Origin: Hormoscilla sp.
Lineage (GTDB): Bacteria; Cyanobacteriota; Cyanobacteriia; Cyanobacteriales; Desertifilaceae
DNA: 21,380 nucleotides
Assembly (NCBI GenBank): GCA_051439505.1
Contig: JBFRWI010000035.1
Coordinates: 1-21,380, forward strand
Reading direction: 5' to 3'
Part shown: positions 2,538-20,792 of the stretch, in pieces
How the letters are laid out: every line of letters starts with the position of its first letter
Numbering within the stretch: position 1 is the first letter of the stretch
The notes under the pieces: model-generated
What the model saw: the letters and a program-made list of their open reading frames with translations, nothing else
Databases searched by the model: none
Told to the model about the DNA's origin: nothing
Position numbers and translations under genes: made by a program

Positions 2538-3049
2538 ATGGCAGAAGGAGACAACGGACATAAAAGTGACGAACTCTCCGATTATAGATCGGCACGGAAT
2601 CTGCTGAAGATAGTAACGGCGGAACTGGAAAGTTGGCGCGCGCAGCCGGATCTCAACTCAAAAGCAGCCCCAGGGACAGGGAAACCCGATCGGGCCAAGC
2701 CCAAAGCAGCCTCGAAGATCGGCACGGGTTTATTTCTGGCTTTAATGTCAGCAGTAGTGCTGTCGATATTTAACGTTTACCTGAAGATTATTTTCCAGAC
2801 TCCCGGGCAGTCGAGTAAGATATTAGGTATATTAGAACAGCCAGGACTGCTGGCACCGGGATTCGGAAATGCCCTGTTAATTTTGTTTCTGCGGATGATA
2901 GTGGTGATGGCAGTGATGCCAATCTTAGCCACAGTCCTCTATCCGCCAGTTTGGCAAGATATTAAAGGGTTTCTCCAGTCAAAAGACCGGGCCCAGATGC
3001 TGAAAGTAGTGGGAAGTGGCTTCTTTCTGCTGCTGTCTCAAGTATGCAT
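2538..3049 (+). pseudogene. 5' part of an EamA/DMT-family permease (SepJ-like permease domain), truncated by IS982
   Basis: GLFLALMSAVVLSIFNV...GNALLILFLRMIVV...LYPPVWQDIK...GSGFFLLLSQVCI, then the frame runs into the IS inverted repeat at 3050; no 3' half seen beyond the IS. Confidence 0.8.
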
Positions 3050-4256
3050 ACGCGATGTGCAACTTATTGACTGAGAAGTCTCTCGAACTGCAAAGGATCA
3101 TGACTATGACGATTTAACCATATACAAACGGTGTGGGCTAAAATTTTGCCGTTAAAACGATTGGTTAAATGCCAGGTATCCCTGGCCCAAACTTTTTCAA
3201 TATTAAACCGTTCTTGAAGCTGTCCAATTACCGTTTCAATTAAGCGTCTAATTTTCATAAAAAAATTCACCAAATCTCTGGGAAGTTTGTCCTTCATGTT
3301 TTTACGTAATGCTGTTTGTAAATTAATACCTACATCAGCTAATTGCTGTTTTAATTCTTCGCTAATATAACCTTTATCTCCAATTAAAAGACATTTAATT
3401 CCTGATACAGTTTCCCATAAAGCTTCTCGCTCCGAGCCATTACCACTTGTCACGGTCAAACCTGTAATTACTCCGAAACTCTTAATTCCTAAATGACCTC
3501 TAAATCCATAATAAAAACTATCTTTAGCCGCACAATAACCGTAATCTGATTCGGCAGAAAAATTAGCACAACGAGGGGCACGGGTAATACCACATAATGG
3601 TATAGGAATGCCGTCTATTAAATGAATTGAATCAGAGAAACCTCCTAATCTCCACGCTAAGCATTTTTGTAATTCTTGTTTATACATCCAGAAATTTGCC
3701 ACCTGTCTCGTAAATGTGGTACGAGTTTTTAATTTAGGAAATAAAGGTAACCAATGGTGTCTAAAGTATTTCCAAATTGCTCGATCAGTATCTATTCGGA
3801 TAAATTCTCCTACAATTTCCATTGTAATCACTTCAGCATCAGTTAATGAGGGTGCAAACCCTCTTCGCCTTGGGGGGTATTTTGTTTGAATATTTCTCAA
3901 AAAGTAATCTACACAACAATAAACAGCTATGATAAACTCTTCCATAGAAAACATTTGTTTCACCTCAATGCAAGGGAAATTTGTGTATTTTCAAATTTTA
4001 GTGGTGGAACTTTTTTTTGTCAAGGGGTTAGTCCAAAATGAGATAAAAAAGTATTTTACAATACAGTAAATTTCAGAGTTTCCCTCATTAAAGTGCCTTC
4101 GGAAAATCAGGCTACCAACGCCTTCGCGGCGATAAGCCTCGGCCAACCACGAGCGGCCTTTATGCTCTGTGGCCTGGAACCCTAGCCATCTAGGGCTGTT
4201 TGAGCTTCAAGTTGGTAGCCTACATTCAGATTTGGCAAAAAAGTTGCACATCGCGT
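3050..4256 (-). mobile_element. IS982-family insertion sequence (1207 bp)
   Basis: Perfect 16-bp terminal IRs ACGCGATGTGCAACTT (3050-3065) / AAGTTGCACATCGCGT (4241-4256); AT-rich; single transposase; no matching TSD. Confidence 0.92.
3064..3963 (-). CDS. IS982-family DDE transposase
   Basis: 299 aa (possible ATG start at 3954); LTDAEVIT, IDGIPIPLC, FYYGFRGH, IGDKGY, RRLIETVIGQL; stop overlaps the IR. Confidence 0.93.
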   Translation of the reverse strand: MKQMFSMEEFIIAVYCCVDYFLRNIQTKYPPRRRGFAPSLTDAEVITMEIVGEFIRIDTDRAIWKYFRHHWLPLFPKLKTRTTFTRQVANFWMYKQELQKCLAWRLGGFSDSIHLIDGIPIPLCGITRAPRCANFSAESDYGYCAAKDSFYYGFRGHLGIKSFGVITGLTVTSGNGSEREALWETVSGIKCLLIGDKGYISEELKQQLADVGINLQTALRKNMKDKLPRDLVNFFMKIRRLIETVIGQLQERFNIEKVWARDTWHLTNRFNGKILAHTVCIWLNRHSHDPLQFERLLSQ

Positions 4257-4327
4257 AAGCTTACATTGACGCAGAGTAAGCTTACATCAATGCAGAGTAA
4301 GCTTACATTAATGCAGAGTAAGCTTAC
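4255..4327. repeat. 21-bp tandem repeat, about 3.5 units
   Basis: GTAAGCTTACATYRAYGCAGA units starting at 4255, 4276, 4297, 4318 (last partial); each contains the palindrome GTAAGCTTAC. Confidence 0.93.
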
Positions 4328-4670: not shown

Positions 4671-5585
4671 ATGTTGCCTCAGCCATTGGAAACTCGACCC
4701 TGGTACTCGCAAATTGGCGCTCAACGCGATTGGATCTGGCGCGGTTGGCAAATTCGCTATACTTATATTCGTTCCGATCTCCGTGAGGCCGATCGCGCGC
4801 CCTTGGTTTTCCTCCACGGTTTTGGGTCCGCGATCGGTCAATGGCGCTACAACTTACAGCCCCTCAGTGAAGATCGTACAGTCTATGGGCTGGATTTGCT
4901 GGGGTTTGGCGCTTCCCAAAAAGCACCTGCCGAGTACGGTGCCGAACTGTGGATGGCGCAAGTACGGGACTTCTGGCGCAGCTTTATTCAAACCCCCATC
5001 GTCCTGGTCGGCCACTCCCTGGGCGGTGCGGTGGCCCTGGCAGTTGCGGCCAGTTACCCGGAAATGGTTCGCGGTTTGGTCTTGCTGACGGTGCCGCCTT
5101 CGGTACAAGAACGATCCTCTTCTAAATTACAAGCCATAGGCGCATCTATGGAAACAGCTTTTGCTTCTCCCTTGCTGCTGCGATCGCTATTTCCCCTTTT
5201 CCGGCGTCCGCAGGTAATTCGCAAGGGTCTCCAGCTTGCCTATGTTAACCAAGAGATGGTAACTCCAGAATTAGTCGCCTTATTTGCCGATCCACCCCTA
5301 GACAGAGGGGCCCCAGGAGTATTGTGCCGACTGTTTCGATCGAAAAACCGACGAGATTATACCCCTAACGTGAAGGTAACGCTGCCGCAACTGGAAATGC
5401 CGATTCTGATGTTGTGGGGCAAGCAAGACCGAGTGATTCCCCTAGACTGGGGACGGCAGTTAGCAACGCTCAATCCACAGTTACAATTTGTAGAGATCGA
5501 AAATGTAGGTCATTGTGCTTACGATGAATGTCCCGATCGAGTCAATCAGGAAATCATCACTTGGCTCAAATCTCATTATTTGTAA
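4671..5585 (+). CDS. Alpha/beta fold hydrolase
   Basis: 304 aa; HGFG oxyanion motif, DLLGFGAS, GHSLGG nucleophile elbow, WGKQD, GHC. Confidence 0.95.
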   Translation: MLPQPLETRPWYSQIGAQRDWIWRGWQIRYTYIRSDLREADRAPLVFLHGFGSAIGQWRYNLQPLSEDRTVYGLDLLGFGASQKAPAEYGAELWMAQVRDFWRSFIQTPIVLVGHSLGGAVALAVAASYPEMVRGLVLLTVPPSVQERSSSKLQAIGASMETAFASPLLLRSLFPLFRRPQVIRKGLQLAYVNQEMVTPELVALFADPPLDRGAPGVLCRLFRSKNRRDYTPNVKVTLPQLEMPILMLWGKQDRVIPLDWGRQLATLNPQLQFVEIENVGHCAYDECPDRVNQEIITWLKSHYL

Positions 5586-5720
5586 AGCAGAAAAATTGGC
5601 GGCACAACGATGAGCATTGACTGGCGATCGGCGATCGGTCCCTAGTTCAACCCGTGAACCTGCTGCACTGCCGGTAGTCGCGATCGCCTAGCGCCGGTGG
5701 CAAACAGGGGGCCCCTGGCC

Positions 5721-5795
5721 CTTGTTCGGTGGGAAAATGTAAAGAATTATTAACAGGGGTTGCCATTTGCCCGAGGAGGTTGCTAAGTTAGATGT
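5721..5795 (+). promoter_or_regulatory. Promoter of repeated ncRNA unit 1 with upstream HLR1-like direct repeat
   Basis: -35 TTGCCA 5760-5765, 18-bp spacer, TGn + TAAGTT 5784-5789; AATGTAAA-GA-ATTATTAA at 5736-5753; spacing identical in all three units. Confidence 0.75.
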
Positions 5796-6086
5796 ACGAA
5801 CACCGAAAAGGATAAATACAGGCGATCTAGACGCGGTGTGTTTTCTGTCTAGAGTCACCGAATGCAGCCGAGACATGGTCAATAGTGGCAAGACACTCAT
5901 TACCCGAGTAAAGCCAACGGTCTGGAAAGACGCGATTATGTAGAAGCCAAAAGGGCTTTGCTGCGTACAGTTGTCAACCATAGTTTTGCAGACAGATTCG
6001 ATTTTCCCATTTCACCAAATCAGCTTGAAAGATACTTTTGCTTCCATGAGGGGTCTAGCCGCCGTCGGTTAGACCCCTGAAGCTTT
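5796..6086 (+). ncRNA. Putative structured ncRNA, copy 1 (about 290 nt; ends inferred)
   Basis: Between conserved promoter and 3' hairpin; ACACCG 5800-5805 pairs with loop CGGTGT 5834-5839 of TCTAGAC/GTCTAGA stem; ATGCAGC 5862-5868 / GCTGCGT 5960-5966; no conserved ORF. Confidence 0.78.
6049..6086 (+). terminator. 3' hairpin of ncRNA copy 1
   Basis: AGGGGTCTAGCCG-CCGT-CGGTTAGACCCCT then GAAGCTTT. Confidence 0.7.
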
Positions 6087-6093
6087 GAGGGGT

Positions 6094-6168
6094 CTTGTTC
6101 GGTGTGAGAATGTAAAGAAATATTAACAGGGGTTGACAGTGAGGTTGGGTAGTTGCTAGCTTATACAT
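6094..6168 (+). promoter_or_regulatory. Promoter of repeated ncRNA unit 2
   Basis: -35 TTGACA 6133-6138, TGn + TAGCTT 6157-6162; AATGTAAA-GA-AATATTAA 6109-6126; offset 373 bp from unit 1. Confidence 0.8.
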
Positions 6169-6455
6169 ATAGACGCCAAAAGGATAACCAAAGGGATTCA
6201 TGCTCAGGTGTCGTTTCCAGCAGAGAATCCAGTCGCAGCAACTTCACTCGTAGCATCCAGTGGCAAAACCCCCCAAGATGGGATAAGGCCAAACCTAAGT
6301 CCGGAAAGACAAAGCTATAATTAGATCGCCGAAAGGCAAGCTGCGATCGAGTAGTAAACCTTATCTGTCCTATCTAGTTCTCGCGAGTTACACTTGAAAA
6401 ACTCTTTTGCTTCCAGAATAGGTCTAGCCGCCGCCGGTTAGACCTATTAAGCTTT
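6169..6455 (+). ncRNA. Putative structured ncRNA, copy 2 (about 287 nt; ends inferred)
   Basis: GACGCC 6172-6177 pairs with loop GGTGTC 6207-6212 of GGATTC/GAATCC stem; TCGCAGC 6233-6239 / GCTGCGA 6340-6346; GCC-GAAA-GGC hairpin. Confidence 0.78.
6417..6455 (+). terminator. 3' hairpin of ncRNA copy 2
   Basis: AATAGGTCTAGCCG-CCGC-CGGTTAGACCTATT then AAGCTTT; base of stem covaries with copy 1. Confidence 0.72.
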
Positions 6456-6486
6456 AAGGATCGACGGATGATAGATTCCAAAGAAT

Positions 6487-6530
6487 ATGCTTAGAGAACA
6501 AATAAAGAAGGAAATAGAGTTGCTACTAAG
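6487..6530 (+). pseudogene. 5' fragment of a small antitoxin-like gene interrupted by the TnpB element
   Basis: MLREQIKKEIELL(L); joins in frame with the fragment at 8456-8663 when the element is removed. Confidence 0.75.
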
Positions 6531-8455
6531 TGCGCAAAAACCTACACATCTCTCATATTTAGGCAAATATTCAGTATCGCCCTTGGTTATTCTCTGTAGC
6601 AAAAAACATATTTATTTCCGTATTATTGCTACGCCCAACAGAGCAGGCTTGTGTCTATAATTGTAAGTATAAGTCTAAAAAGAAACGAGCAGCTCGTAAA
6701 GAAAAAAAGAACTCATGAGTATTATAGCAAAAATCAAGCAAAAAGGAAATGAAAAAGCCGGGGTCGAGTCATCAACTAGAACTATTTGCGATACATGGAA
6801 CTGAGATAATTCCAAATGTGACGCTGTTAGGCAATAACTTGAATCTTTGCGCAAACAGTATTCAGAATCGAAAAACATTCCAGAAACTATCGGAGGGTTT
6901 AATTTTAGACAACGGAAATCTGACTCCATTCTGGAACGAATTATCAAGCCGGATATCTAATGGTTTATCACTGCCAACCGAGACAGACTCTGTAAGATAT
7001 GAAAACTGGTTAAACGTCTATGCAAGAGCAATAGAGTCTAACTCTTGGTTCTCCGCGACCGGTAGCTCGGTGCATGGCAAAAGTTTATTTAAAATAAAAT
7101 GCCCGGCATCAACGGATTCAATTCTCGGGACTACTGTTTGTGAAGAGAAGAAAAAATCGAGAAAGTACGGAAATAACCCATTCAAGAAAAGCCAGAATAT
7201 CCAACCGAATAGCATTAAGAAAATTCCGGTGTTTCCCGAACCGGAACTGCATGTTATTTGGAAACAATGGCTAGCTGCTTACCGTTGGGTGTACAACCAG
7301 TGTATCGAGTTCTATAACAACAATCGGGCACTGCCAGAAGGCCGTTCTTTAGACCAATATATTCAGCAGTTACAAAGTGAAGCAAAAAATGAATGGACAA
7401 AATGCTTGGGCAAAACTAGACAAGAGGCAGTTTGTGAGGCTCAAAGTGCTAGTAGGCAATCCCGCAAAGCCAATGGTGGTAAGGGTTGGCTGCGATTCAG
7501 ATCCTGTAGAAGTAAGTCCCAGGTCATTCAGTTTAAGAATGATGCTTATAGAAACGGCACGTGGTTTCCCTCAAAGATTGGCAATCTAAAATTTGTTGTG
7601 GCTAAAGGCTATGAATTGCCAATCAATTGCGTTTACGGTACGGAATTACTGTACCAACGCGGGCAATGGTTTGCAAGATTTCCCTCATATGTACCGATAG
7701 TATGTACGGGTTCTGATAAAGTAATTGCACTCGATCCTGGAAACCGCACCTTCTTGACCGGTTATGACGGCGAGAACATTTTAGAGATTGGCAAGGGAGA
7801 CATCGGGCGACTGACGAGGTTATGCCTGCACCTTGACAATTTGATTGGAAGAAAGATGAAAGCCACTGGCAAAGTCAACAAGCGTTTACGGTACAAGCTG
7901 AACAAGGCAATTGATCGACTTCGGTTCAAGATTCGCTCGCTAGTAGATGACCTACATCGTCAAGCTGCTAGTCTACTTGTCAATAGTTACAAGCTGATAT
8001 TTCTTCCTACTTACCAGACTTCGCAAATGGTGGTAAAAGCCAATCGTAAGATTAATCGTAAGTCGGTCAGAAATATGCTGACTTGGGCTATAGGTAGATT
8101 TGCTTCTCACTTGGAACAGGCAGCTAAGCGTCAAGGAGTACTGGTGGTTCGTTGCAATGAGGCTTACACGAGTAAAACCTGTCCCAAGTGCGGTCACGTC
8201 CACAAAAAACTTGGTGGTTCCAAAGTTCACTTTTGCCCGGCTTGCGGTCATAAAGCACCGCGAGATTGGGTCGGCGCCTTCAACATTTTATTGAGGGCTT
8301 TGCAGGCTGTCGCCTTCGATGTTAGAGATGGCGTTATCACCATTTCTGATGCCGATGTTATACTTGCCCAGAGCCAATATGAGCTTTGTGAGGGTTAAAG
8401 ACAGCACCAACTCAGCACCTACACCGTTCGGATGATTTGGGCTGAACATCGACAG
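6531..8455 (+). mobile_element. Non-autonomous IS607-type element carrying tnpB only (ends uncertain by about 5 bp)
   Basis: Splits a host ORF; AG dinucleotide at both junctions (6529-6530, 8454-8455); ACCTACAC near both ends (6540-6547, 8417-8424); no tnpA seen; no HIP1 sites seen inside. Confidence 0.75.
6749..8398 (+). CDS. tnpB: TnpB-family RNA-guided endonuclease with Fanzor-like rearranged RuvC
   Basis: 549 aa; RWVYN helix, ALDPGNRTF (D329), LIFLP (P420), NEAYTSKTCPKC (E471), CPAC zinc finger, RDWVGAFNI (D506); N-terminal extension with PFWN...LPT...SNSWFS. Confidence 0.93.
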   Translation: MKKPGSSHQLELFAIHGTEIIPNVTLLGNNLNLCANSIQNRKTFQKLSEGLILDNGNLTPFWNELSSRISNGLSLPTETDSVRYENWLNVYARAIESNSWFSATGSSVHGKSLFKIKCPASTDSILGTTVCEEKKKSRKYGNNPFKKSQNIQPNSIKKIPVFPEPELHVIWKQWLAAYRWVYNQCIEFYNNNRALPEGRSLDQYIQQLQSEAKNEWTKCLGKTRQEAVCEAQSASRQSRKANGGKGWLRFRSCRSKSQVIQFKNDAYRNGTWFPSKIGNLKFVVAKGYELPINCVYGTELLYQRGQWFARFPSYVPIVCTGSDKVIALDPGNRTFLTGYDGENILEIGKGDIGRLTRLCLHLDNLIGRKMKATGKVNKRLRYKLNKAIDRLRFKIRSLVDDLHRQAASLLVNSYKLIFLPTYQTSQMVVKANRKINRKSVRNMLTWAIGRFASHLEQAAKRQGVLVVRCNEAYTSKTCPKCGHVHKKLGGSKVHFCPACGHKAPRDWVGAFNILLRALQAVAFDVRDGVITISDADVILAQSQYELCEG

Positions 8456-8475
8456 CAACGGCGACCAGCAACTGC
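8300..8475 (+). ncRNA. Putative omegaRNA/reRNA (scaffold at element right end, guide from flank); 5' limit unknown
   Basis: Expected position for TnpB elements; hairpin GTTCGG 8426-8431 / CTGAAC 8442-8447 just before the right end. Confidence 0.45.
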
Positions 8476-8663
8476 AAAAGATTGCTGATTTTATCGTGGC
8501 GACGAAGTTAACGACAGCTGTATCCCAGAGAGTGACTCCACTTTGGCAAAAGATGACACCGGAAGAAAGGGCTAGGGATTTCCGAGAATGGGTATCGCAA
8601 CTGACCGTAAATAGTCCGAGCTTATCAGATATAGATATTAGCAGAGACAGCATTTATGAATGA
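8456..8663 (+). pseudogene. 3' fragment of the interrupted antitoxin-like gene
   Basis: GDQQLQKIADFI...WQKMTPEERARDFREWVSQL...PSLSDIDISRDSIYE*; no start codon of its own; the C-terminus resembles small proteins that precede PIN toxins. Confidence 0.75.
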
Positions 8664-8686
8664 TGACAAGATACCTACTGGTACTT
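8663..8686 (+). pseudogene. Stub of a PIN/VapC-like toxin gene
   Basis: TGATG overlap with the preceding stop; ATG ACA AGA TAC CTA CTG G-T ACT reads MTRYLL(D)T if one base is restored; abuts the promoter of ncRNA unit 3. Confidence 0.5.
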
Positions 8687-8693
8687 TCAAGGT

Positions 8694-8768
8694 ATTCTTC
8701 GGTGTGAGAATGTAAAGAAATATAAAGAGGGGTTGACAGTTGGCTTGGCGAATTGCTAGATTAGATAT
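8694..8768 (+). promoter_or_regulatory. Promoter of repeated ncRNA unit 3
   Basis: -35 TTGACA 8733-8738, TGn + TAGATT 8757-8762; AATGTAAA-GA-AATATAAA 8709-8726. Confidence 0.8.
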
Positions 8769-8971
8769 ATGGACGCCAAAGAGATAAGCAGAGCGATCTA
8801 GACCAGGCGTCTCCAGTCTAGAACGCAGAGCGCAGCCAACAGAACAGCTGCTGATTAGCAAACCCTTAGTTGTTGAAAACCACTCGTACTTTCTCATCAT
8901 TTCACACTGGAAAACAAACACGATCTTCAAGAAATGGGTCTAGCCGCCGCCGGTTAGGCCCTTCGAGTTTT
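8769..8971 (+). ncRNA. Putative structured ncRNA, copy 3 (about 200 nt, internal domain missing)
   Basis: GACGCC 8772-8777 pairs with loop GGCGTC 8806-8811 of TCTAGAC/GTCTAGA stem; GCAGC 8832-8836 / GCTGC 8847-8851 closes only 10 nt; 3' hairpin GGGTCTAGCCG-CCGC-CGGTTAGGCCC 8936-8961. Confidence 0.72.
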
Positions 8972-8996
8972 AAAAGACAGATGATAAAAAAACTGT

Positions 8997-9572
8997 ATGT
9001 ATGATTTGAGGCTGTTGCTGTGGTGGGCCTTGGCCAATGGTCTCGGTGGGGCGATCGTCGGTTTTATGGAAGCCTGGCGTTTTCAGTTTCTCGCTACCTT
9101 GGTACTGATGGGACCGATCGTGGGAATTTGTCAATGGTTGGTTCTGCGTCGTTACCTGGGAAAAGTCCGCTGGTGGCCGATCGCCACGACCTTCGGCTGG
9201 CTATTGGCAATGCAAATAACTATCAGGGCAAGAGATATTCTCGATCCCATAATAAATTATCTTTACACAGTCGGTGGCCTATGGGAAGTATTTTGGCTGA
9301 ATGCAGTTCAGACTCCCGTGACCCTAGCAGTCCTGGCCGTTGTGCAATGGTTGGTTCTGCGTCCGAGAGGTCCGAATGCTGGTTTGTGGGTTTTGGCCAG
9401 CGCGGTGGGTGGTGTGTTTAATGGTGCGATCGGGGCGACAATGTGTGCTAAAGTATGTAGTCTGCTGGCAGTTGGTGTAGGGTTAGGAATATCTCAAGGA
9501 CTGGGTTGGTTAGCCTATGGAGTTGTCACGGGTGTAGTTTTAATCCGGTTTTTGGCAAAGAAAAACAAGTAA
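8997..9572 (+). CDS. Hypothetical membrane protein
   Basis: 191 aa, several hydrophobic Gly/Trp-rich segments, internal repeat QWLVLR. Confidence 0.8.
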   Translation: MYDLRLLLWWALANGLGGAIVGFMEAWRFQFLATLVLMGPIVGICQWLVLRRYLGKVRWWPIATTFGWLLAMQITIRARDILDPIINYLYTVGGLWEVFWLNAVQTPVTLAVLAVVQWLVLRPRGPNAGLWVLASAVGGVFNGAIGATMCAKVCSLLAVGVGLGISQGLGWLAYGVVTGVVLIRFLAKKNK

Positions 9573-9591
9573 TATTTCGCGGTCATCCCTC

Positions 9592-9774
9592 ATGAAAAAG
9601 CAGAAAAAGTTTGATTGCGTGCAAATGAAATGGGACATCCAGAAGAAACTTGCTGAAGAGTTCGCTGGAGTACCGGAGTGGGAAGCACGGAAAATTCAAA
9701 TGGAAAGAGTGCTTGCTAATCCAATTATAGGACGTATATTCAGAGAAGCAAAGGTGATTGAACTCAGAATTTAG
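9592..9774 (+). CDS. Small hypothetical protein, possibly antitoxin-like
   Basis: 60 aa with KKFDCVQMKWDIQ N-terminal motif; no partner ORF seen. Confidence 0.6.
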   Translation: MKKQKKFDCVQMKWDIQKKLAEEFAGVPEWEARKIQMERVLANPIIGRIFREAKVIELRI

Positions 9775-9908
9775 TTCCGAAATCATATAACATCATTGGC
9801 GATCGCGCAGGGACTTAACTGTGGGCAACCTTACGCGATCGTGCATTCATACAAGGGCGATCGCCCGCTAGAAATTGGTAACATTTATGTGACATTTGGG
9901 CAGGGACC

Positions 9909-9969
9909 GGGGCACGGCGCTAGTAACATTTTCATCTTTACCGATAATCTGCGGATGCCGTGCCCCTAC
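9909..9969. repeat. REP-like element family A, copy 1
   Basis: GGGGCACGGC 9909-9918 / GCCGTGCCCC 9957-9966; ACCGATAATCTG-N3-ATGCCGTGCCCCTAC shared with 20793-20855. Confidence 0.8.
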
Positions 9970-10234
9970 ATTATCTTGATGAGCGATCGCTGGGAATTGG
10001 TAACATTTTCATCTGGCTGTGGGATAAAAATTGTAACATTTTGAATTGCGCCTTTAAGCAGGGGAGTCTCCTTTGTCTCCTTTTGTTGCCATACTGCGAT
10101 CGCAAGAACTATTGAAATGACTGTAGCATTATATAGCAATTACCAATTATTTGTGAAAGTTTAGAAACATGTTTTCGCCGAATTTACCCTGGTTTTGGGA
10201 ATATTTGAGATCAGCAATTATGAGCAGAATATGT

Positions 10235-10292
10235 TATTAGTCGGTTTCAACCGACTTTAGCTATTAGCAGGGGGTGGGATACCCCCTGCGGG
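10235..10292 (-). repeat. Double-hairpin repeat family B, inverted copy
   Basis: Diverged reverse complement of 12564-12622; contains AGTCGGTT-TC-AACCGACT. Confidence 0.85.
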
Positions 10293-10429
10293 ATAAGGCG
10301 ATCGACGACAGACTCTGTATGGGACAAAAATTACGGATATTGCCAGGGTTGAACCAAACTTGATATAATCATCCAGTCGGTGTCCATCGGACAGTAAACT
10401 ATGGAAACTAGCCCATTAACTCCAATCTC

Positions 10430-12550
10430 ATGCCAACATTCCTATTAGAAGTCGGTACAGAAGAATTACCCGCAGATTTTCTGGATAATGCTTTACAACA
10501 ATGGCGGGACCGCCTCCCCCAGTCCCTGGCGGACCAACTCCTCACCCCAGAAACCCTGGAACTGTACGCCACGCCCCGCCGCCTGGCCTTACTCCTGAAG
10601 GGTTTGCCCGCCCGGCAACCGGACCGGGAAGAGGAGGTGAAAGGCCCCCCTGCGAAAGCGGCCTTCAAGGATGGCAAACCCACTAAAGCCGCAGAAGGGT
10701 TTGCCCGCAAGCAGGGAGTGGCAGTTGAGGCCCTGGAAGTGCGACCTACCGAGAAAGGCGATTTTGTCTTCCTGCGCAAGCAAATTACCGGACGCCCTGC
10801 TGCGGAAATTCTCACGGAACTGGTCCCCCAATGGATTTTTGCCCTGGAGGGGAGGCGGTTCATGCGCTGGGCCGATGGAGATTTGCGCTTTCCTCGCCCC
10901 ATCCGCTGGTTGGTGACTTTGTTGGACGACCAAGTGCTGCCCATCATGTGGGAAAATGGTGGCGAAACCGTGAAGAGCGATCGCATCTCAGTGGGTCATC
11001 GGGTATTGCATCCCGAACCCGTAACCGTTCCCCAGGCAAGTGATTATGTGGAATGCCTGGGTTCTGCCTATATAGAAGTTGACCCCACTCAGCGTCAGAC
11101 TAAGATCGAACGGGATGTAGAAGCTGCTGCCCAAAAGCTGAATGGTTACGCGGAAATATCCCCCGAATTATTGCAGGAAGTGACTAACTTGGTCGAATAC
11201 CCCACCGCAGTAGTAGGGAAATTTGACCCGGAATTTTTGCAGTTGCCTGCCGAAGTCAGCACCACGGTGATGGTGAAGCACCAACGGTATTTTCCGGTGT
11301 TGAAAAACCAGGAAACTCGGGAACTACTCCCCTATTTTATCACCGTTAGTAATGGGAACCCAGCTGCATCAGATGTAATAGCCGCTGGGAACGAACGAGT
11401 CATCCGCGCCAGATTAGCAGATGCCCAGTTCTTTTATAAAGCAGATCTGGCCCAACCCCTGGAAAACTATTTGCCCCAGCTGGAAAAAGTTACCTTTCAG
11501 GAAGATTTGGGGTCGGTACGGTTAAAGGTCGATCGCCTGAGTGAGAACGCCCGGAAAATTGCCCGACAGTTGCAACTCTCGGCAGCCGAAACCGGTATAA
11601 TAGAAAGGGCAGCATTACTCTGCAAAGCAGACTTGGTAACCCAGATGGTGTACGAGTTTCCCGAATTGCAAGGTGTAATGGGAGAAAAATACGCTCGCGC
11701 TTGCCAAGAACCCGAAGCAGTCGCCAAGGCAATTTACGAACATTATTTACCCCGAGGCGCGGGAGATAAATTGCCCCAGACGATCGCGGGTCAAGTGGTG
11801 GGGTTAGCAGATAGACTGGATACCTTGGTAAGTATCTTCAGTTTGGGCATGATGCCCACGGGTTCCGGAGATCCCTTCGCCCTGCGGCGGGCCGCTAATG
11901 CGATCGTCAACATTACTTGGGCAGGAAATTTAGCCATTAACCTCAAGGAACTGCTGACAGAAATAGCCCAAAAACCGGAATTAATTGCCTTATTGGCAGA
12001 ATTTTTCCTGCAACGCCTTCGTACCCAGTTGCAAGAGGAACGGGCCATAGATTACGATCTCGTTAATGCTGTCCTGGGGGAAAATGACCCAGAATACGCC
12101 GATCGGGCCTTGCAGGATTTGCTCGACCTGCGCGATCGGGCCTTATTCCTGCAAGAAATACGCAATAACGGCCAATTAGATGCCATTTACGAAACGGTGA
12201 ACCGTTCCACCCGTTTAGGGGCCCAAGGAGATTTAGATACAGTCAAGTTGGAACCGCAAGGGTTGGTAAACCCCGAACTGTTTGAGAAATCTTCAGAACA
12301 AGCATTCCTGGATGCGATAGTCGAGTTAGTACCCAAAACCAAGGCATCCCAAGCAACGCGAAATTATCAGCAATTAGTGGATGCTTTGAGCGAAATTGCA
12401 CCAAAAGTAAGTCGTTTTTTCGACGGCGAAGACAGCGTGTTAGTGATGGATAAGAACCCGGAAATTCGGCGCAACCGCCTGAATTTGCTGGGGTTACTGC
12501 GGAATCACGCTCGCGTGTTAGCAGATTTTGGTGCTATAGTTAAGGGGTGA
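10430..12550 (+). CDS. glyS: Glycine--tRNA ligase beta subunit
   Basis: 706 aa; [70 protein letters not shown]. Confidence 0.98.
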
Positions 12551-15960: not shown

Positions 15961-17763
15961 ATGCATTTAATTGATTACACTATTGTCGGAGTTTACTTGT
16001 TGGCGATCGTCCTGTTTGGCATATATCTCCAGCGGAAAGCCTCCGCAGGGATAGACTCTTACTTTCTGGGCGATCGGAATATGCCTTGGTGGGTATTGGG
16101 GGCCTCCGGGATGGTATCCAATACAGATATTGCGGGGACAATGTTGATCACGGCCTTAGTCTACGCCTTGGGAACGAAGGGATTTTTTCTGGAACTCCGG
16201 GGTAGCATTGCCTTAATTCTAGCAATGTTCATGATTTTTATGGGCAAGTGGAACCGCCGGGCCCAAGTCATGACCTTAGCGGAATGGATGCATTTGCGTT
16301 TTGGGGTGGGACGGGAAGGAAATCTCGCCCGGATAGTGAGTGCCGTTGCTGCTATTATCTTGACCATTGGCAGGATCGGTTACTTTGCCATCGGTGGAGG
16401 CAAATTCTTAGGAGAATTTATTACTGTCGATGCCCGCCTGGCCTCGATTTTAATTATCTTCCTGGCCTCGATATACACGGTCCTTAGCGGTTTCTATGGG
16501 GTGGTATTAACCGACCTGTTTCAGGGAGTATTGATTTTTGTGGCCATTATCTATATCTGCGCGATCGCCCTACAACTCCCCCCTCTCCCGGAGACCTTTG
16601 CCATCTCCATTCCGGGAACCGATCGCTTGTACGAGTGGAATTTTAGCGAGTGGAGTAGTATATTTCCCTCCATGGAAGTAGACTTGCCGGGAGACTATGG
16701 CCGTTTCAACTTGTTCGGGGCGATCCTTTGCTTCTATCTGCTGAAAGTATTGATGGAAGGGTTTGGGGGTATCGGTGGCTATATGATGCAGCGCTATTTT
16801 GCCGCCAAAAGCGATCGGGAAGTGGGGTTGATGTCCCTGTGGTGGATATTCTTGCTTTCCTTTCGCTGGCCCTTGGTAACCGCCTTTGCGATCCTGGGCA
16901 TCAATTACGGCATTACGAACCAAATTACGAACCAAGCAATTCCCGACCCGGAACTGGTCTTGCCCACAGTTATCGCTACCTACCTACCGGTGGGAATCAA
17001 AGGATTGGTATTAGCTTGTTTTATCGCCGCCGGGATGTCTACTTTTGACTCCTTAATTAATGGCGGCGCTGCTTACTGGGTGAAGGATATTTATCAAGCT
17101 TATCTCCATCCGCAAGCTGACAACCGCAAACTGCTGGCTCAAAGTCGCTGGGCATCGGTTATCATCGTACTGGTGGGATTGCTATTTAGCTTCAGTATCT
17201 CCAATATCAATGAAATTTGGGGATGGTTGACCCTGGGACTTGGCGCTGGTATGGCGGTTCCTCTCCTGTTAAGATGGTATTGGTGGCGGTTTAATGGCTA
17301 TGGATTTGCCACGGGCATCGCCGCTGGCATGGTGGCCGCAATTATTACTAAGGCGATCGTCTTACCTTCCTTCCCGAATCTGCAATTTATCGAATTTATC
17401 CAATTTCTAATTCCTAGCAGTTTTTCCTTGGCCGGATGCATCGCTGGCACCCTGTTAACCCCAGCAACGGAACGGTCAGTCCTGGAGAACTTCTATCAAG
17501 TTACCCGCCCCTTCGGTTTCTGGAAGCCGATCGCCCGAAATCTGCCCAGCAATCTCAGGGTCGAAATCACAAAAGAGAACCGGCGGGACTTGCTGGCCAC
17601 CGCGATCGCGATTCCCTGGCAAATAGTTTTGTGTCTCACGGGAATCATGTTGATGATGAAACGTTGGGACAATTTTCAAATACTCTCCCTGCTGCTGCTT
17701 GTACTCTCTATCTGTTTGTACTTCGCCTGGTACAGACATCTCAAAAAGTTGAGCAATTGTTAA
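15961..17763 (+). CDS. Sodium:solute symporter (SSS) family protein, paralog 1
   Basis: 600 aa polytopic; YFLGDR..PWW, SGFYGVVLTD.FQ, QRYFAAK, AAGMSTFDS, WWRFN. Confidence 0.95.
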   Translation: MHLIDYTIVGVYLLAIVLFGIYLQRKASAGIDSYFLGDRNMPWWVLGASGMVSNTDIAGTMLITALVYALGTKGFFLELRGSIALILAMFMIFMGKWNRRAQVMTLAEWMHLRFGVGREGNLARIVSAVAAIILTIGRIGYFAIGGGKFLGEFITVDARLASILIIFLASIYTVLSGFYGVVLTDLFQGVLIFVAIIYICAIALQLPPLPETFAISIPGTDRLYEWNFSEWSSIFPSMEVDLPGDYGRFNLFGAILCFYLLKVLMEGFGGIGGYMMQRYFAAKSDREVGLMSLWWIFLLSFRWPLVTAFAILGINYGITNQITNQAIPDPELVLPTVIATYLPVGIKGLVLACFIAAGMSTFDSLINGGAAYWVKDIYQAYLHPQADNRKLLAQSRWASVIIVLVGLLFSFSISNINEIWGWLTLGLGAGMAVPLLLRWYWWRFNGYGFATGIAAGMVAAIITKAIVLPSFPNLQFIEFIQFLIPSSFSLAGCIAGTLLTPATERSVLENFYQVTRPFGFWKPIARNLPSNLRVEITKENRRDLLATAIAIPWQIVLCLTGIMLMMKRWDNFQILSLLLLVLSICLYFAWYRHLKKLSNC

Positions 17764-17826
17764 TTGATACCATTTATTAAAAAGATTGCTACACTTATGC
17801 GGATGTAATTCTCTCACTTCGCTGTC

Positions 17827-17891
17827 AGCCCGCCGGGGGTTCAAACCCCCGGCTAATAGCTAAAGTCGGTTTTAATTTTAACCGACTAATA
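17827..17891 (+). repeat. Double-hairpin repeat family B
   Basis: Matches 12564-12622 apart from a longer loop in the second hairpin. Confidence 0.9.
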
Positions 17892-17974
17892 GGATAATCG
17901 GACGAATAATTGTAGCAGGTTTTTGACAAAATGGGATTATAATTGAGAAGAATTTGTCAGAAAATAGAGAGTTT

Positions 17975-19783
17975 ATGGATTTAATTGATTACATTATTGT
18001 CGGCGTATACCTGTTGGCGATCGTCCTGTTGGGCATATTTCTCCAGCGGAAAGCATCATCAGGGATAGACTCTTACTTTTTGGGCGATCGCAAAATCCCT
18101 TGGTGGGTATTGGGGGCATCGGGGATGGCGTCCAATACGGACATTGCTGGGACAATGGTATTAACAGCATTAATCTACGCCTTGGGAACGAAGGGATTTT
18201 TTATCGAGATCCGGGGTGGCATTGTCTTAATAATGGCAATGTTCATGATTTTTATGGGCAAGTGGAACCGCCGGGCCCAAGTCATGACCTTAGCGGAATG
18301 GATGCAGTTACGTTTTGGTGGCGGACGGGAAGGAAAGATCGCCCGGATAGTGAGTGCCGTTTCTACTATTATATTTACCATTGGTGCGATCAGTTACTTT
18401 GCCGTCGGCGGGGGCAAATTCTTGGGACCATTGATCGGCTTCGATGACCGCTTGGCCTCGACTTTACTCATTATCCTCGCATTGATATACACCGCCCTTA
18501 GCGGTTTCTATGGGGTGGTAATCACAGATGTTTTTCAGGGCGTATTGATTTTTGTCGCCGTTATTTATGTATGCGCGATCGCCCTACAAACACCACCTCT
18601 GCCGGAGACATTTGCCATCTCCATTCCGGGAACCGATCGCTTGCAAGAGTGGAATTTTAGCGACTGGAGTAGTATCTTGCCCCCCATGCAGGTAGACTTG
18701 CCAGGAGACTATGCCAGTTTCAACTTGTTCGGGGGTATCCTTTGCTTCTATCTCTTGAAAGTCTTGATGGAAGGGTTTGGTGGTGTCGGCGGCTATATGA
18801 TGCAGCGCTATTTTGCCGCCAAAAGCGATCGGGAAGCGGGGTTGCTGTCCCTGTGGTGGATATTCTTACTTTCCTTTCGCTGGCCCTTGGTAACGGCCTT
18901 TGCGATCCTGGGCATCAATTACGGCCTTACCAACCAAGTAATTTCCGACCCGGAACTGGTCTTGCCAACAGTTATCGCTACCTACGTACCGGTGGGAATC
19001 AAAGGATTGCTAGTAGCTTGTTTTCTCGCCGCCGCCATGTCTACTTTTGACTCGATCATTAACTCTGCTGCTGCTTACTGGGTGAAGGATATTTATCAAG
19101 CTTATCTCAATCCGCAAGCTAATAACCGACAACTGATAAATCAAAGTCGCTGGGCATCTGTTATTATAGTAGTGGTGGGCTTGCTGTTTAGTTTCAATAT
19201 CTCCAATATCAATGAAATTTGGGGATGGTTGACCCTGGGGCTGGGCACGGGTCTGGCGGTTCCCCTGGTGTTAAGATGGTATTGGTGGCGGTTTAATGGC
19301 TATGGATTTGCCACAGGCATCGCCGCTGGCATGGTGGCCGCTATTCTCGCTAAGGCGATCGTCCTACCTTTTTTGCCGGATCCGCAACTTCAGGAATATC
19401 TCCTATTTCTAATTCCTAGCAGTTGTTCCTTGGCCGGATGCATCGCTGGCACCCTGTTAACCCCAGCAACGGAACGGTCAGTCCTGGAAAATTTCTTTTC
19501 TGTTACCCGCCCCTTCGGTTTCTGGAGGCCGATCGCCGGTAATTTGCCCCGCAATCTCAGGGCCAAAATTACATTAGAGAACCGGCGGGACTTACTGGCC
19601 ACCGCGATCGCCATTCCTTGGCAACTGGTTTTGTTTCTCACCGGAATCATGTTGATGATGAAACGTTGGGATAATTTCCAAATACTGTTGCTGCTGCTGA
19701 TTTTACTTTCTATCGGTTTGTACTTCACCTGGTACAGACATCTAGAAAAAAAAGTTACTCCCGGCAACCCGCGTCATAGCTAA
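17975..19783 (+). CDS. Sodium:solute symporter (SSS) family protein, paralog 2
   Basis: Colinear and highly similar to paralog 1; ATG 17975 (MDLIDY) preferred over TTG 17954 by alignment with MHLIDY. Confidence 0.95.
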   Translation: MDLIDYIIVGVYLLAIVLLGIFLQRKASSGIDSYFLGDRKIPWWVLGASGMASNTDIAGTMVLTALIYALGTKGFFIEIRGGIVLIMAMFMIFMGKWNRRAQVMTLAEWMQLRFGGGREGKIARIVSAVSTIIFTIGAISYFAVGGGKFLGPLIGFDDRLASTLLIILALIYTALSGFYGVVITDVFQGVLIFVAVIYVCAIALQTPPLPETFAISIPGTDRLQEWNFSDWSSILPPMQVDLPGDYASFNLFGGILCFYLLKVLMEGFGGVGGYMMQRYFAAKSDREAGLLSLWWIFLLSFRWPLVTAFAILGINYGLTNQVISDPELVLPTVIATYVPVGIKGLLVACFLAAAMSTFDSIINSAAAYWVKDIYQAYLNPQANNRQLINQSRWASVIIVVVGLLFSFNISNINEIWGWLTLGLGTGLAVPLVLRWYWWRFNGYGFATGIAAGMVAAILAKAIVLPFLPDPQLQEYLLFLIPSSCSLAGCIAGTLLTPATERSVLENFFSVTRPFGFWRPIAGNLPRNLRAKITLENRRDLLATAIAIPWQLVLFLTGIMLMMKRWDNFQILLLLLILLSIGLYFTWYRHLEKKVTPGNPRHS

Positions 19784-20208: not shown

Positions 20209-20706
20209 TTACTTTTCTTCGACGGCACAGCTTTTGTAAAACTCTTTCATTGATGATTGAGAAATGATAGCATGAGATGGTTCATCTTTAGGCAAGCCTT
20301 CCCTGGCTTTCATCCAAGGATCTTCCCGACAAACCATCAGTTCTAGTTCTAAACCCGTGCAAAGAAAATATTCTACCGTTATATCCTTCAAAAACTCCTC
20401 TAATTCTGGCGAAAACTGTGGTTGTTTCACCTCCTTGATAATGGGTTTCCATTGAAATTTTTTGTACTCCTCAAATAAGGTCGGGATAACAGGACCATGT
20501 ACCCAAGCTTCAAAATCATCTTCAAACAGGAGACTGTCCTCGATCGCCAGATGCCAAGCTTGGGCATAATAGACTAGCTTCTGTAGCTTCAGGTTACTGA
20601 TAAATGAGCCAGAGTCGTTTGCCACCCAGATGAAGTAGTCGGCTATTTCATCAAGAGTTGTTATTGTTTTCCTGTCCTTTCTGGACAATGTTGCTCGATC
20701 GCTCAT
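20209..20706 (-). CDS. Panacea-domain (SocA/DUF4065) antitoxin-like protein
   Basis: IADYFI, ISNLKLQKLVYYAQ, FEAWVHGPV, PW; ATG at 20706 preferred over the longer ORF call at 20757. Confidence 0.88.
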   Translation of the reverse strand: MSDRATLSRKDRKTITTLDEIADYFIWVANDSGSFISNLKLQKLVYYAQAWHLAIEDSLLFEDDFEAWVHGPVIPTLFEEYKKFQWKPIIKEVKQPQFSPELEEFLKDITVEYFLCTGLELELMVCREDPWMKAREGLPKDEPSHAIISQSSMKEFYKSCAVEEK

Positions 20707-20792
20707 AGATGTAGACCATCCTAGTTGGGCATTTTTATTATAGCACGGGAGCGCCAAAACAAAACATCAACATCTGACATCTTCGAGTTGCG

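Follow-up and report, generated by a model that had tools for sequence, protein, structure and literature searches.

Introduction

Pro-Fanzors are defined by a DPG motif, an alternative catalytic glutamate (Ealt) and linkage to IS607 elements (PMC10711439). In the mimivirus Fanzor2 protein ApmFz2 (L79; structure 9B0L), a domain at the N-terminus (NTD; amino acids 53-130) not seen in other TnpB structures provides a RuvC-R segment that completes the RuvC fold, and its Asn82 and Ser83 contact the pseudoknot of the omegaRNA (PMC11832414). The catalytic residues named for this protein are D324 and E467, of which E467 has been tested by mutation (PMC10530073). The open reading frames (ORFs) tnpA and tnpB of IS607 elements overlap (PMC6188088, PMC3673617), and one of these papers reports both the overlap and, in an Acanthamoeba ORFB, an N-terminal insertion of 100 aa, the two not being linked (PMC3673617). 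Here we describe a pro-Fanzor TnpB from the cyanobacterium Hormoscilla sp. (assembly GCA_051439505.1, contig JBFRWI010000035.1, positions 1 to 21,380; this whole stretch of 21,380 nucleotides is hereafter the window). The gene (6749..8398, on the + strand, as are all features below unless stated otherwise) encodes 549 aa in 549 stop-free codons, was recognized as an ORF with profile and homology matches, and carries an N-terminal extension encoded in the second frame of a dead IS607 tnpA.

Taken alone, a first reading of this sequence would yield one more pro-Fanzor; what is added here is the overprinted domain. The locus as a whole is very probably a pro-Fanzor with an overprinted, tnpA-frame NTD inside a non-autonomous IS607 element, and that this NTD is functional we consider very probable from the patterns of stops and substitutions described below.

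The N-terminal extension is read in the second frame of tnpA

A decayed IS607 tnpA, represented by its serine recombinase catalytic domain, lies at 6757..7170, one base behind the TnpB frame. It contains 8 stops in 138 codons and has lost the YARVS motif. It was detected by NF033518 (E 2.3e-5) and by comparison with the intact TnpA on C170, another contig of this genome, with 58 of 141 residues identical (41%, E 1e-30). No separate transposase ORF was present upstream of the nuclease ORF. Residues 1-150 of the nuclease (6749..7198), which we regard as a homologue of the Fanzor2 NTD with its RuvC-R and thumb parts, are overprinted on tnpA to about residue 140, residues ~3-140 being encoded in the +1 frame of the remnant. 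In less decayed copies the TnpB frame begins a few bases after the tnpA start, such that nearly the whole of tnpA is dual-coded.

We scanned all retrieved loci with the TnpA profile and counted matches of at least 95 codons, calling a tnpA linked when the same strand carried a pro-Fanzor-type nuclease downstream of it. In the 71 linked loci, the +1 frame across the TnpA catalytic domain had no stop in 67 and a single stop in the other four. Among 49 other tnpAs, comprising canonical IS607 tnpAs, convergent viral tnpAs and some unrelated recombinases, 46 had 3-35 stops in this frame, and the three stop-free exceptions were truncated family members with NTD matches. Eight shorter TnpA matches were excluded from the count, the one linked locus among them (L039) having 3 stops. 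Cyanobacteria, phage-like contigs and giant-virus bins are all represented in this contrast. The viral loci were located by C-terminal patterns only (a scan with a single protein gave nothing and an alignment-based scan succeeded), and the seven linked loci that came from the TnpA model alone were likewise all stop-free in the +1 frame; the open NTD frame is therefore not a search artefact. A mirror case occurs on contig C194, where a solo tnpA has kept TnpA intact and its NTD frame has 5 stops. TnpA is the widespread protein of the two, and outside these loci its +1 frame is closed, which makes the NTD the later arrival.

An alternative is that the nuclease is an ordinary short pro-Fanzor (~400 aa) with its start beyond tnpA, in which case the open frame upstream would be an untranslated by-product of TnpA sequence or codon use. 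The National Center for Biotechnology Information annotates relatives in just this way: the Nostoc PCC 7120 pro-Fanzor (391 aa, from a plasmid) has its start at codon 188 in an open frame of 578 codons, and that of Okeania KiyG1 (403 aa) at about codon 185 of a 587-codon open frame, both being left without the NTD. Moreover, the NTD profile weakly matches the +1 frame of unrelated tnpAs (E 1e-4 to 7e-6), so some NTD similarity is forced by TnpA. Those profile-matched unrelated tnpAs, however, carry 8-10 stops in the +1 frame, and synonymous recoding of 50 intact linked tnpAs led us to expect 6.5-13.3 stops, with a probability of none of at most 0.0005. In addition, the frame has remained open and under purifying selection after tnpA died (see below), and the equivalent segment of ApmFz2 is ordered and contacts RNA (PMC11832414). 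We hence regard an untranslated upstream frame as highly improbable and retain the overprinted NTD. One point weighs on the other side, namely that the loci are kin, so that neither the stop counts nor the pair statistics given below are independent.

Separately, we noted some copies (P0007, P0082 and C1:1952-2475) in which frameshifts join the MerR-type helix-turn-helix (HTH) of TnpA in frame with the nuclease.

Selection shifted to the nuclease frame after tnpA death

Compared with C170 over ~104 NTD codons, this copy had proportions of synonymous and nonsynonymous differences (pS and pN) of 0.63 and 0.23 in the TnpB frame (pN/pS 0.37), and of 0.32 and 0.31 in the tnpA frame (pN/pS 0.97). 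The differences fell on the three TnpB codon positions as 24/28/49 (chi-square p 0.005), and in a neutral simulation the TnpB frame stayed stop-free in only 0.7% of runs (P 0.007). The same shift appeared across copies: in 78 pairs with an open tnpA the median pN/pS was 0.79 for TnpB and 0.39 for TnpA, while in 28 pairs with a dead tnpA it was 0.41 and 0.77, respectively. These medians come from 22 distinct copies, two others, in which the TnpB frame has a stop, having been omitted. A complication that tells against a clean separation is that the live set takes in C170, whose TnpB is broken, and C125+, whose tnpA is open with YARVS changed. Selection shifted to the nuclease frame once tnpA was dead, and the pattern argues strongly, if indirectly, that the extension is both translated and required. 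This copy serves as a natural experiment in which an NTD outlives its parent gene.

The nuclease core and its family

The rearranged Fanzor-type center that the original prediction had read from the sequence was borne out. Specifically, we located D329 in the RuvC-I DPG (7733..7741, also supported by alignment with 9B0L), P420 in LIFLP at the canonical RuvC-II Glu position (8006..8008), the alternative catalytic E471 in NEAYTSKTC (8159..8161, six residues separating it from C478), both CxxC pairs of a C4 zinc finger (8180..8245; C478 and C481 in CPKC, C496 and C499 in CPAC), and the RuvC-III D506 (8264..8266). Of the 120 listed homologues, 85 were aligned; D329, P330, G331, P420, E471, C478, C481 and C496 proved invariant (85/85), C499 was present in 84 and D506 in 83. 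The ORF was matched by NF040570 (TnpB; 136.9 bits, cut-off 100) and PF07282, and the IS200_TnpB model gave 44.9 bits on the 549-aa protein against a cut-off of 425.

By sequence, the best solved relative was the mimivirus Fanzor2 9B0L (phmmer E 1.4e-22), and, counted along that alignment, D329, E471 and D506 pair with its D324, E467 and D501. An AlphaFold model (mean predicted local distance difference test score, pLDDT, 78.1) again ranked 9B0L first (Foldseek E 9.1e-21), and VIA superposed model residues 58-523 on chain residues 53-518 with Z 21.8 and a root-mean-square deviation of 4.3 over 426 aligned residues. The predicted N-terminal extension of about 150 aa also held up: the WED domain starts near residue 155 in the model, and among the top structure matches only 9B0L aligned from residue 58, those of TnpB and Cas12f beginning near 150.

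The closest named relatives were from Hormoscilla, Okeania and Stigonema, and the neighboring genes in the window are bacterial housekeeping genes. The Okeania KiyG1 relative (62% identical) and the Nostoc plasmid relative (34%) are both listed as pro-Fanzor in PMC10711439 Table S5. Phylogenetic placement, which the original prediction had proposed as a check, agreed: in trees of the nuclease part without the NTD, the protein fell outside the canonical TnpBs, in a clade with viral Fanzor2-like proteins and pro-Fanzors of cyanobacteria that held 70 of 79 rows (Shimodaira-Hasegawa-like approximate likelihood ratio test 97) and, in a second tree, 69 of 75 rows (support 97). Tempering this placement, the trees were quick or FastTree reconstructions with 9 and 6 outgroup rows, built without ApmFz2, any Fanzor1 or a published Fanzor reference. 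With DPG and the alternative Glu present in an IS607-derived element that retains a tnpA remnant, membership in the pro-Fanzors, as the original prediction had proposed, is almost certain. Canonical IS200/IS605 TnpB does not describe the locus, which has P420 at the Glu position and a serine-recombinase remnant in place of a Y1 transposase. Fanzor2 proteins are those of eukaryotic or eukaryotic-virus hosts and the genome context here is cyanobacterial; the nuclease probably resembles a Fanzor2 in how it works but is not classed as one.

A catalytically dead TnpB, or one that acts by RNA-guided, repressor-like binding, might be read from the Pro at the canonical Glu position and from RuvC-III, which is RDWV and so lacks the usual Asn of RDxN (V in 19 and N in 59 of the 85 homologues); the missing Asn is a point against an active enzyme. 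We consider this reading very unlikely, because E471 is invariant in that alignment and corresponds to the mutation-tested E467 of ApmFz2 (PMC10530073), and because the element still shows a flank bias resembling a target-adjacent motif (TAM).

Relation to the Fanzor2 N-terminal domain

The predicted counterpart of the pseudoknot-contacting pair is the NSWF motif (N98-F101, 7040..7051), which aligns with N82/S83 of ApmFz2, has S99, W100 and F101 invariant in 85/85 homologues, and is encoded by the DNA of the TnpA LVVL strand. The alignments recover the RuvC-R and thumb of a structured Fanzor2 NTD, with moderate model confidence. The +1 overlap was also present in giant-virus contigs (e.g., L125, L128, L134, L140, L153, L174 and L175), and of 19 viral ORFs without an overlapping tnpA, 10 matched the overlapped-NTD profile above all 1000 shuffled decoys and five retained a tnpA ghost in the expected frame. 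Overlapped forms were found at every depth of the trees, from which ApmFz2 is absent, with released forms nested among them.

The cyanobacterial NTD and that of the mimivirus Fanzor2 could alternatively be look-alike extensions acquired independently. Several observations lean this way and thereby weaken a common origin: the NTDs match weakly in direct sequence comparison (phmmer gave the NTD segment alone 14 bits against 9B0L, independent E 0.1), model confidence is lowest in the NTD (pLDDT <50 at 5-21, 43-58 and 122-142), and seven of the 19 non-overlapped viral ORFs had no NTD match and two were borderline, the viral loci compared not including that of ApmFz2 itself. Set against these are the occurrence of the same +1 overlap in giant-virus contigs, the sister placement of overlapped and non-overlapped forms with support of 99-100 (L123/L125 and L139/L154), the retention of FWN..LWLP..NSWF in released forms, and a structural alignment that reaches chain residue 53. 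Independent extension therefore seems improbable to us, and a shared tnpA-overprint origin of the ApmFz2 NTD seems probable. The distribution would make the tnpA overlap ancestral to the pro-Fanzor/Fanzor2-like clade.

Element ends, predicted omegaRNA and the state of this copy

The nuclease gene lies in a non-autonomous IS607-type element that spans 6520-8407, an autonomous one having an intact tnpA in place of the remnant with its stops and missing catalytic motif. Several contigs of the genome hold related nuclease genes, and element ends are numerous; in 15 left and 13 right ends the flanks diverge at 6520 and after 8407. The left end (6520..6580), delimited by flank divergence in 15 BLAST-anchored copies, is imperfectly inverted relative to the right end, and 12 of 13 right ends terminate in CAGCAC. 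Preceding 14 of the 15 left ends is GAG (12) or GAC (2), mostly with a purine before it; the junction-placing pattern presupposes GA[GC], and the BLAST-anchored view of the left ends gives the same result. The dinucleotide at the presumed junction is AG (12/14) or AC (2/14) on the left and AC (12/13) on the right. In this copy, the putative core dinucleotides at 6517-6519 (AG) and 8405-8407 (AC) do not appear to match, in contrast to IS607, where the rule is GG.

The element splits a small host ORF into a 5′ piece (6487..6519) and a 3′ piece (8408..8663, 60% identical over 67 aa to an intact paralogue on C165), and the paralogue thus fixes the left junction independently. Since the TAM of a TnpB mirrors the insertion site (PMC10711439 supplement) and the left-end flanks are GAG-like, we predict a GAG-like TAM, (R)GAG, represented here by the AGAG at 6516..6519 outside the left end. 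Within the 3′ piece is an extra 46-nt piece (8417-8462) with a single occurrence in the assembly.

The predicted omegaRNA scaffold and right end occupy 8290..8407, the 5′ limit being provisional, and are followed in the right flank by the predicted guide (8408..8425), the first 9 nt of which continue the interrupted host gene; the layout is that of TnpB and Fanzor2 omegaRNAs (PMC10711439, PMC11832414). A covarying 6-bp helix, 8306-8311 with 8400-8405, is taken to mark the RNA. Across 13 right-end regions 97.4% of 78 cells were paired, compared with 15-54% in slid controls; both sides change in 5 of the 6 pairs, and 0 of 500 shuffles reached the covariation score. RNAalifold recovered the same helix, 12 of 13 right ends within the genome retain a perfect helix partner 70-94 nt upstream, and the helix would sit where a pseudoknot closes the scaffolds of ApmFz2 and ISXfa1. 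Counting against it, the helix was chosen by eye from the very alignment on which it was then counted. All seven short derivatives of the element retain it with compensatory changes, and these gene-less forms are possibly stand-alone guide cassettes. Three of the gene-less derivatives are complete, with both ends in 240-350 nt (C169:13337-13686, C100 and C116). An Rfam search of 5000-10500 with E up to 1 returned zero matches, so neither the omegaRNA nor the flanking repeats belong to a curated family. These ~370-bp flanking repeats were also considered as trans guide cassettes and rejected, as BLAST of 5500-9200 shows no likeness to the right end of the element; because of this, and of their position outside the element, they are treated as host features.

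The overprinted NTD could be real in the family and this copy nevertheless a silent relic, with a weak new start, an eroded 5′ region, a disrupted guide and no transposase. Several features speak for such decay, and by the same token against present activity. About 50 of the first codons of the ancestral NTD are eroded in this copy, AGGA lies only 2 nt upstream of ATG 6749, the 46-nt piece begins 9 nt into the predicted guide, and tnpA is dead. No empty target site with at least 12 or 16 matching guide bases was present in the assembly, the one 12-mer match being at chance level. Other copies in the genome are broken as well: C170 is truncated, and at C125 25976-28376 a family copy is interrupted by a group II intron-type reverse transcriptase/HNH ORF. 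On the other side stand the stop-free ORF, the intact catalytic and zinc residues, the intact omegaRNA helix, and the long synonymous divergence (pS 0.63) with a constrained protein. Moreover, in the DNA alignment ATG 6749 coincides with the in-frame TTG of two intact relatives; a second candidate for the ancestral TnpB start, ATG 6715, was discarded, as the same alignment puts it within the eroded HTH region. On balance we think a relic unlikely and lean modestly toward a copy that would still cut DNA today. Were it silent, the conclusion for the family would be unaffected, the two being compatible.

An orthologous empty site was not found in the three same-genus genomes examined, because the repeat cassettes adjoin other genes in two of the three.

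Neighboring features

Three related promoter-RNA-hairpin cassettes flank the element (5718-6090, 6091-6459 and 8691-8973), all outside it, with no conserved ORF and no Rfam match. Cassette matches occurred in four of four same-genus genomes and in six of seven of the sister genus, mostly to the 3′ hairpin. In 11 aligned copies, 34 pairs were predicted, 7 with compensatory changes, and the cassettes likely represent an undescribed structured non-coding RNA of ~290 nt. In two relatives, inserts starting with GTGCG occur at or beside the predicted transcription start of the cassettes (L106 1568-5800 and L107 near 5332), and L106 has three Rfam matches to domain V/VI of group II introns. Units of ~310 bp form a further tandem array (C130 1-1250, C61, L109 and L110), which has a similar promoter motif and an unrelated body.

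Elsewhere in the window, an IS982-family transposase (3064-3963, - strand) lies within 3042-4327, bounded by inverted repeats (3042-3068 and 4238-4264), and the end of this element has three tandem copies spaced 21 bp. A tandem pair of paralogous genes for membrane transporters, which share 88% identity over 300-nt stretches and which we take to be solute-symporter-like, lies at 15961-19783. Finally, 20209-20757 (- strand) encodes a protein with a Panacea/SocA-like antitoxin domain.

Proposed mechanism and history

In the mechanism we propose, the protein would be made from ATG 6749 and would bind an omegaRNA transcribed from its own 3′ end. As in ApmFz2, the NSWF strand of the NTD would pack against both RuvC and the pseudoknot, with target DNA gripped by the basic thumb. 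D329/E471/D506 would then cleave DNA with a GAG-like TAM beside a guide match, and chromosome copies without the element would be repaired from those that keep it. Any movement would depend on TnpA in trans, an intact tnpA being present on C170, and guides could come in trans from the short derivatives in which the helix is retained.

Regarding its history, the NTD may have arisen as the TnpB start moved upstream into the +1 frame of tnpA, in an ancestor of the sampled DPG/alternative-Glu clade, and may have been freed from the overlap several times. Extended to the family, we find it likely that the Fanzor2 NTD, including the residues that touch the pseudoknot, is a de novo domain produced by overprinting an IS607 transposase gene in a pro-Fanzor/Fanzor2 ancestor. 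Most of the members examined from bacteria, phages and giant viruses would carry it in dual-coded form, and the death or relocation of tnpA would repeatedly have released it. Annotated pro-Fanzors would lack it, their true proteins being ~550-600 aa.

Collectively, these data suggest that the additional domain of Fanzor2 nucleases originated within another gene. They offer a traceable origin for an RNA- and DNA-contacting domain of a eukaryote-associated nuclease, the parent gene and the dual-coding and released states all being extant, with one dual-coding copy on plasmid alpha of the model cyanobacterium Nostoc PCC 7120. An artefact of annotation is suggested to account for at least part of the difference reported between the N-termini of pro-Fanzors and Fanzor2, a point that matters for the model of how Fanzors evolved. 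Pro-Fanzors cloned as compact editors from annotated starts may be truncated proteins.

Comparison with known systems

A full-text literature search yielded no statement placing the Fanzor2/pro-Fanzor NTD within tnpA, although figures, other supplements, subscription papers and ISfinder entries could hold one. PMC11832414 describes the NTD as unique, and the terms 'TnpA', 'overlap' and 'IS607' do not appear in its main text; the portion of the PMC10711439 supplement covered has no mention of overlap, reading frame or extension.

With the pro-Fanzors of PMC10711439 the locus shares DPG, the alternative Glu six residues before the zinc finger, an IS607 tnpA and a cyanobacterial host, and its predicted RNA end may likewise be of the pseudoknot type; it differs in that tnpA is dead and the flank is GAG instead of GG(G). 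The rearranged triad, the RuvC-R and thumb equivalents, the N-S pair predicted to meet the pseudoknot and the overall fold (Z 21.8) are likewise those of ApmFz2 (PMC11832414, PMC10530073). In contrast to ApmFz2, the protein is bacterial and ~20% identical, its NTD lies on a tnpA remnant, its predicted omegaRNA is shorter and located inside the ORF, and its predicted TAM is GAG, not GGG.

Canonical IS607 elements (IS607, IS1535 and ISXfa1; PMC6188088, PMC3673617) similarly have a serine-recombinase tnpA upstream of tnpB and no target duplication. In the canonical cyanobacterial elements examined, however, the open frame of TnpB does not begin until close to the end of tnpA and stops crowd the +1 frame, whereas the overlap described here covers the tnpA catalytic domain, and nearly the whole gene in intact relatives; the left and right junction dinucleotides also appear to differ here (AG vs. 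AC), unlike those of canonical IS607. Finally, the IS200/IS605 TnpB of ISDra2 (8H1J) has the same WED-REC-RuvC-ZnF core (Z 20.4) and the same logic of a guide RNA at the right end, but it has the canonical Glu, no NTD and an HUH transposase.

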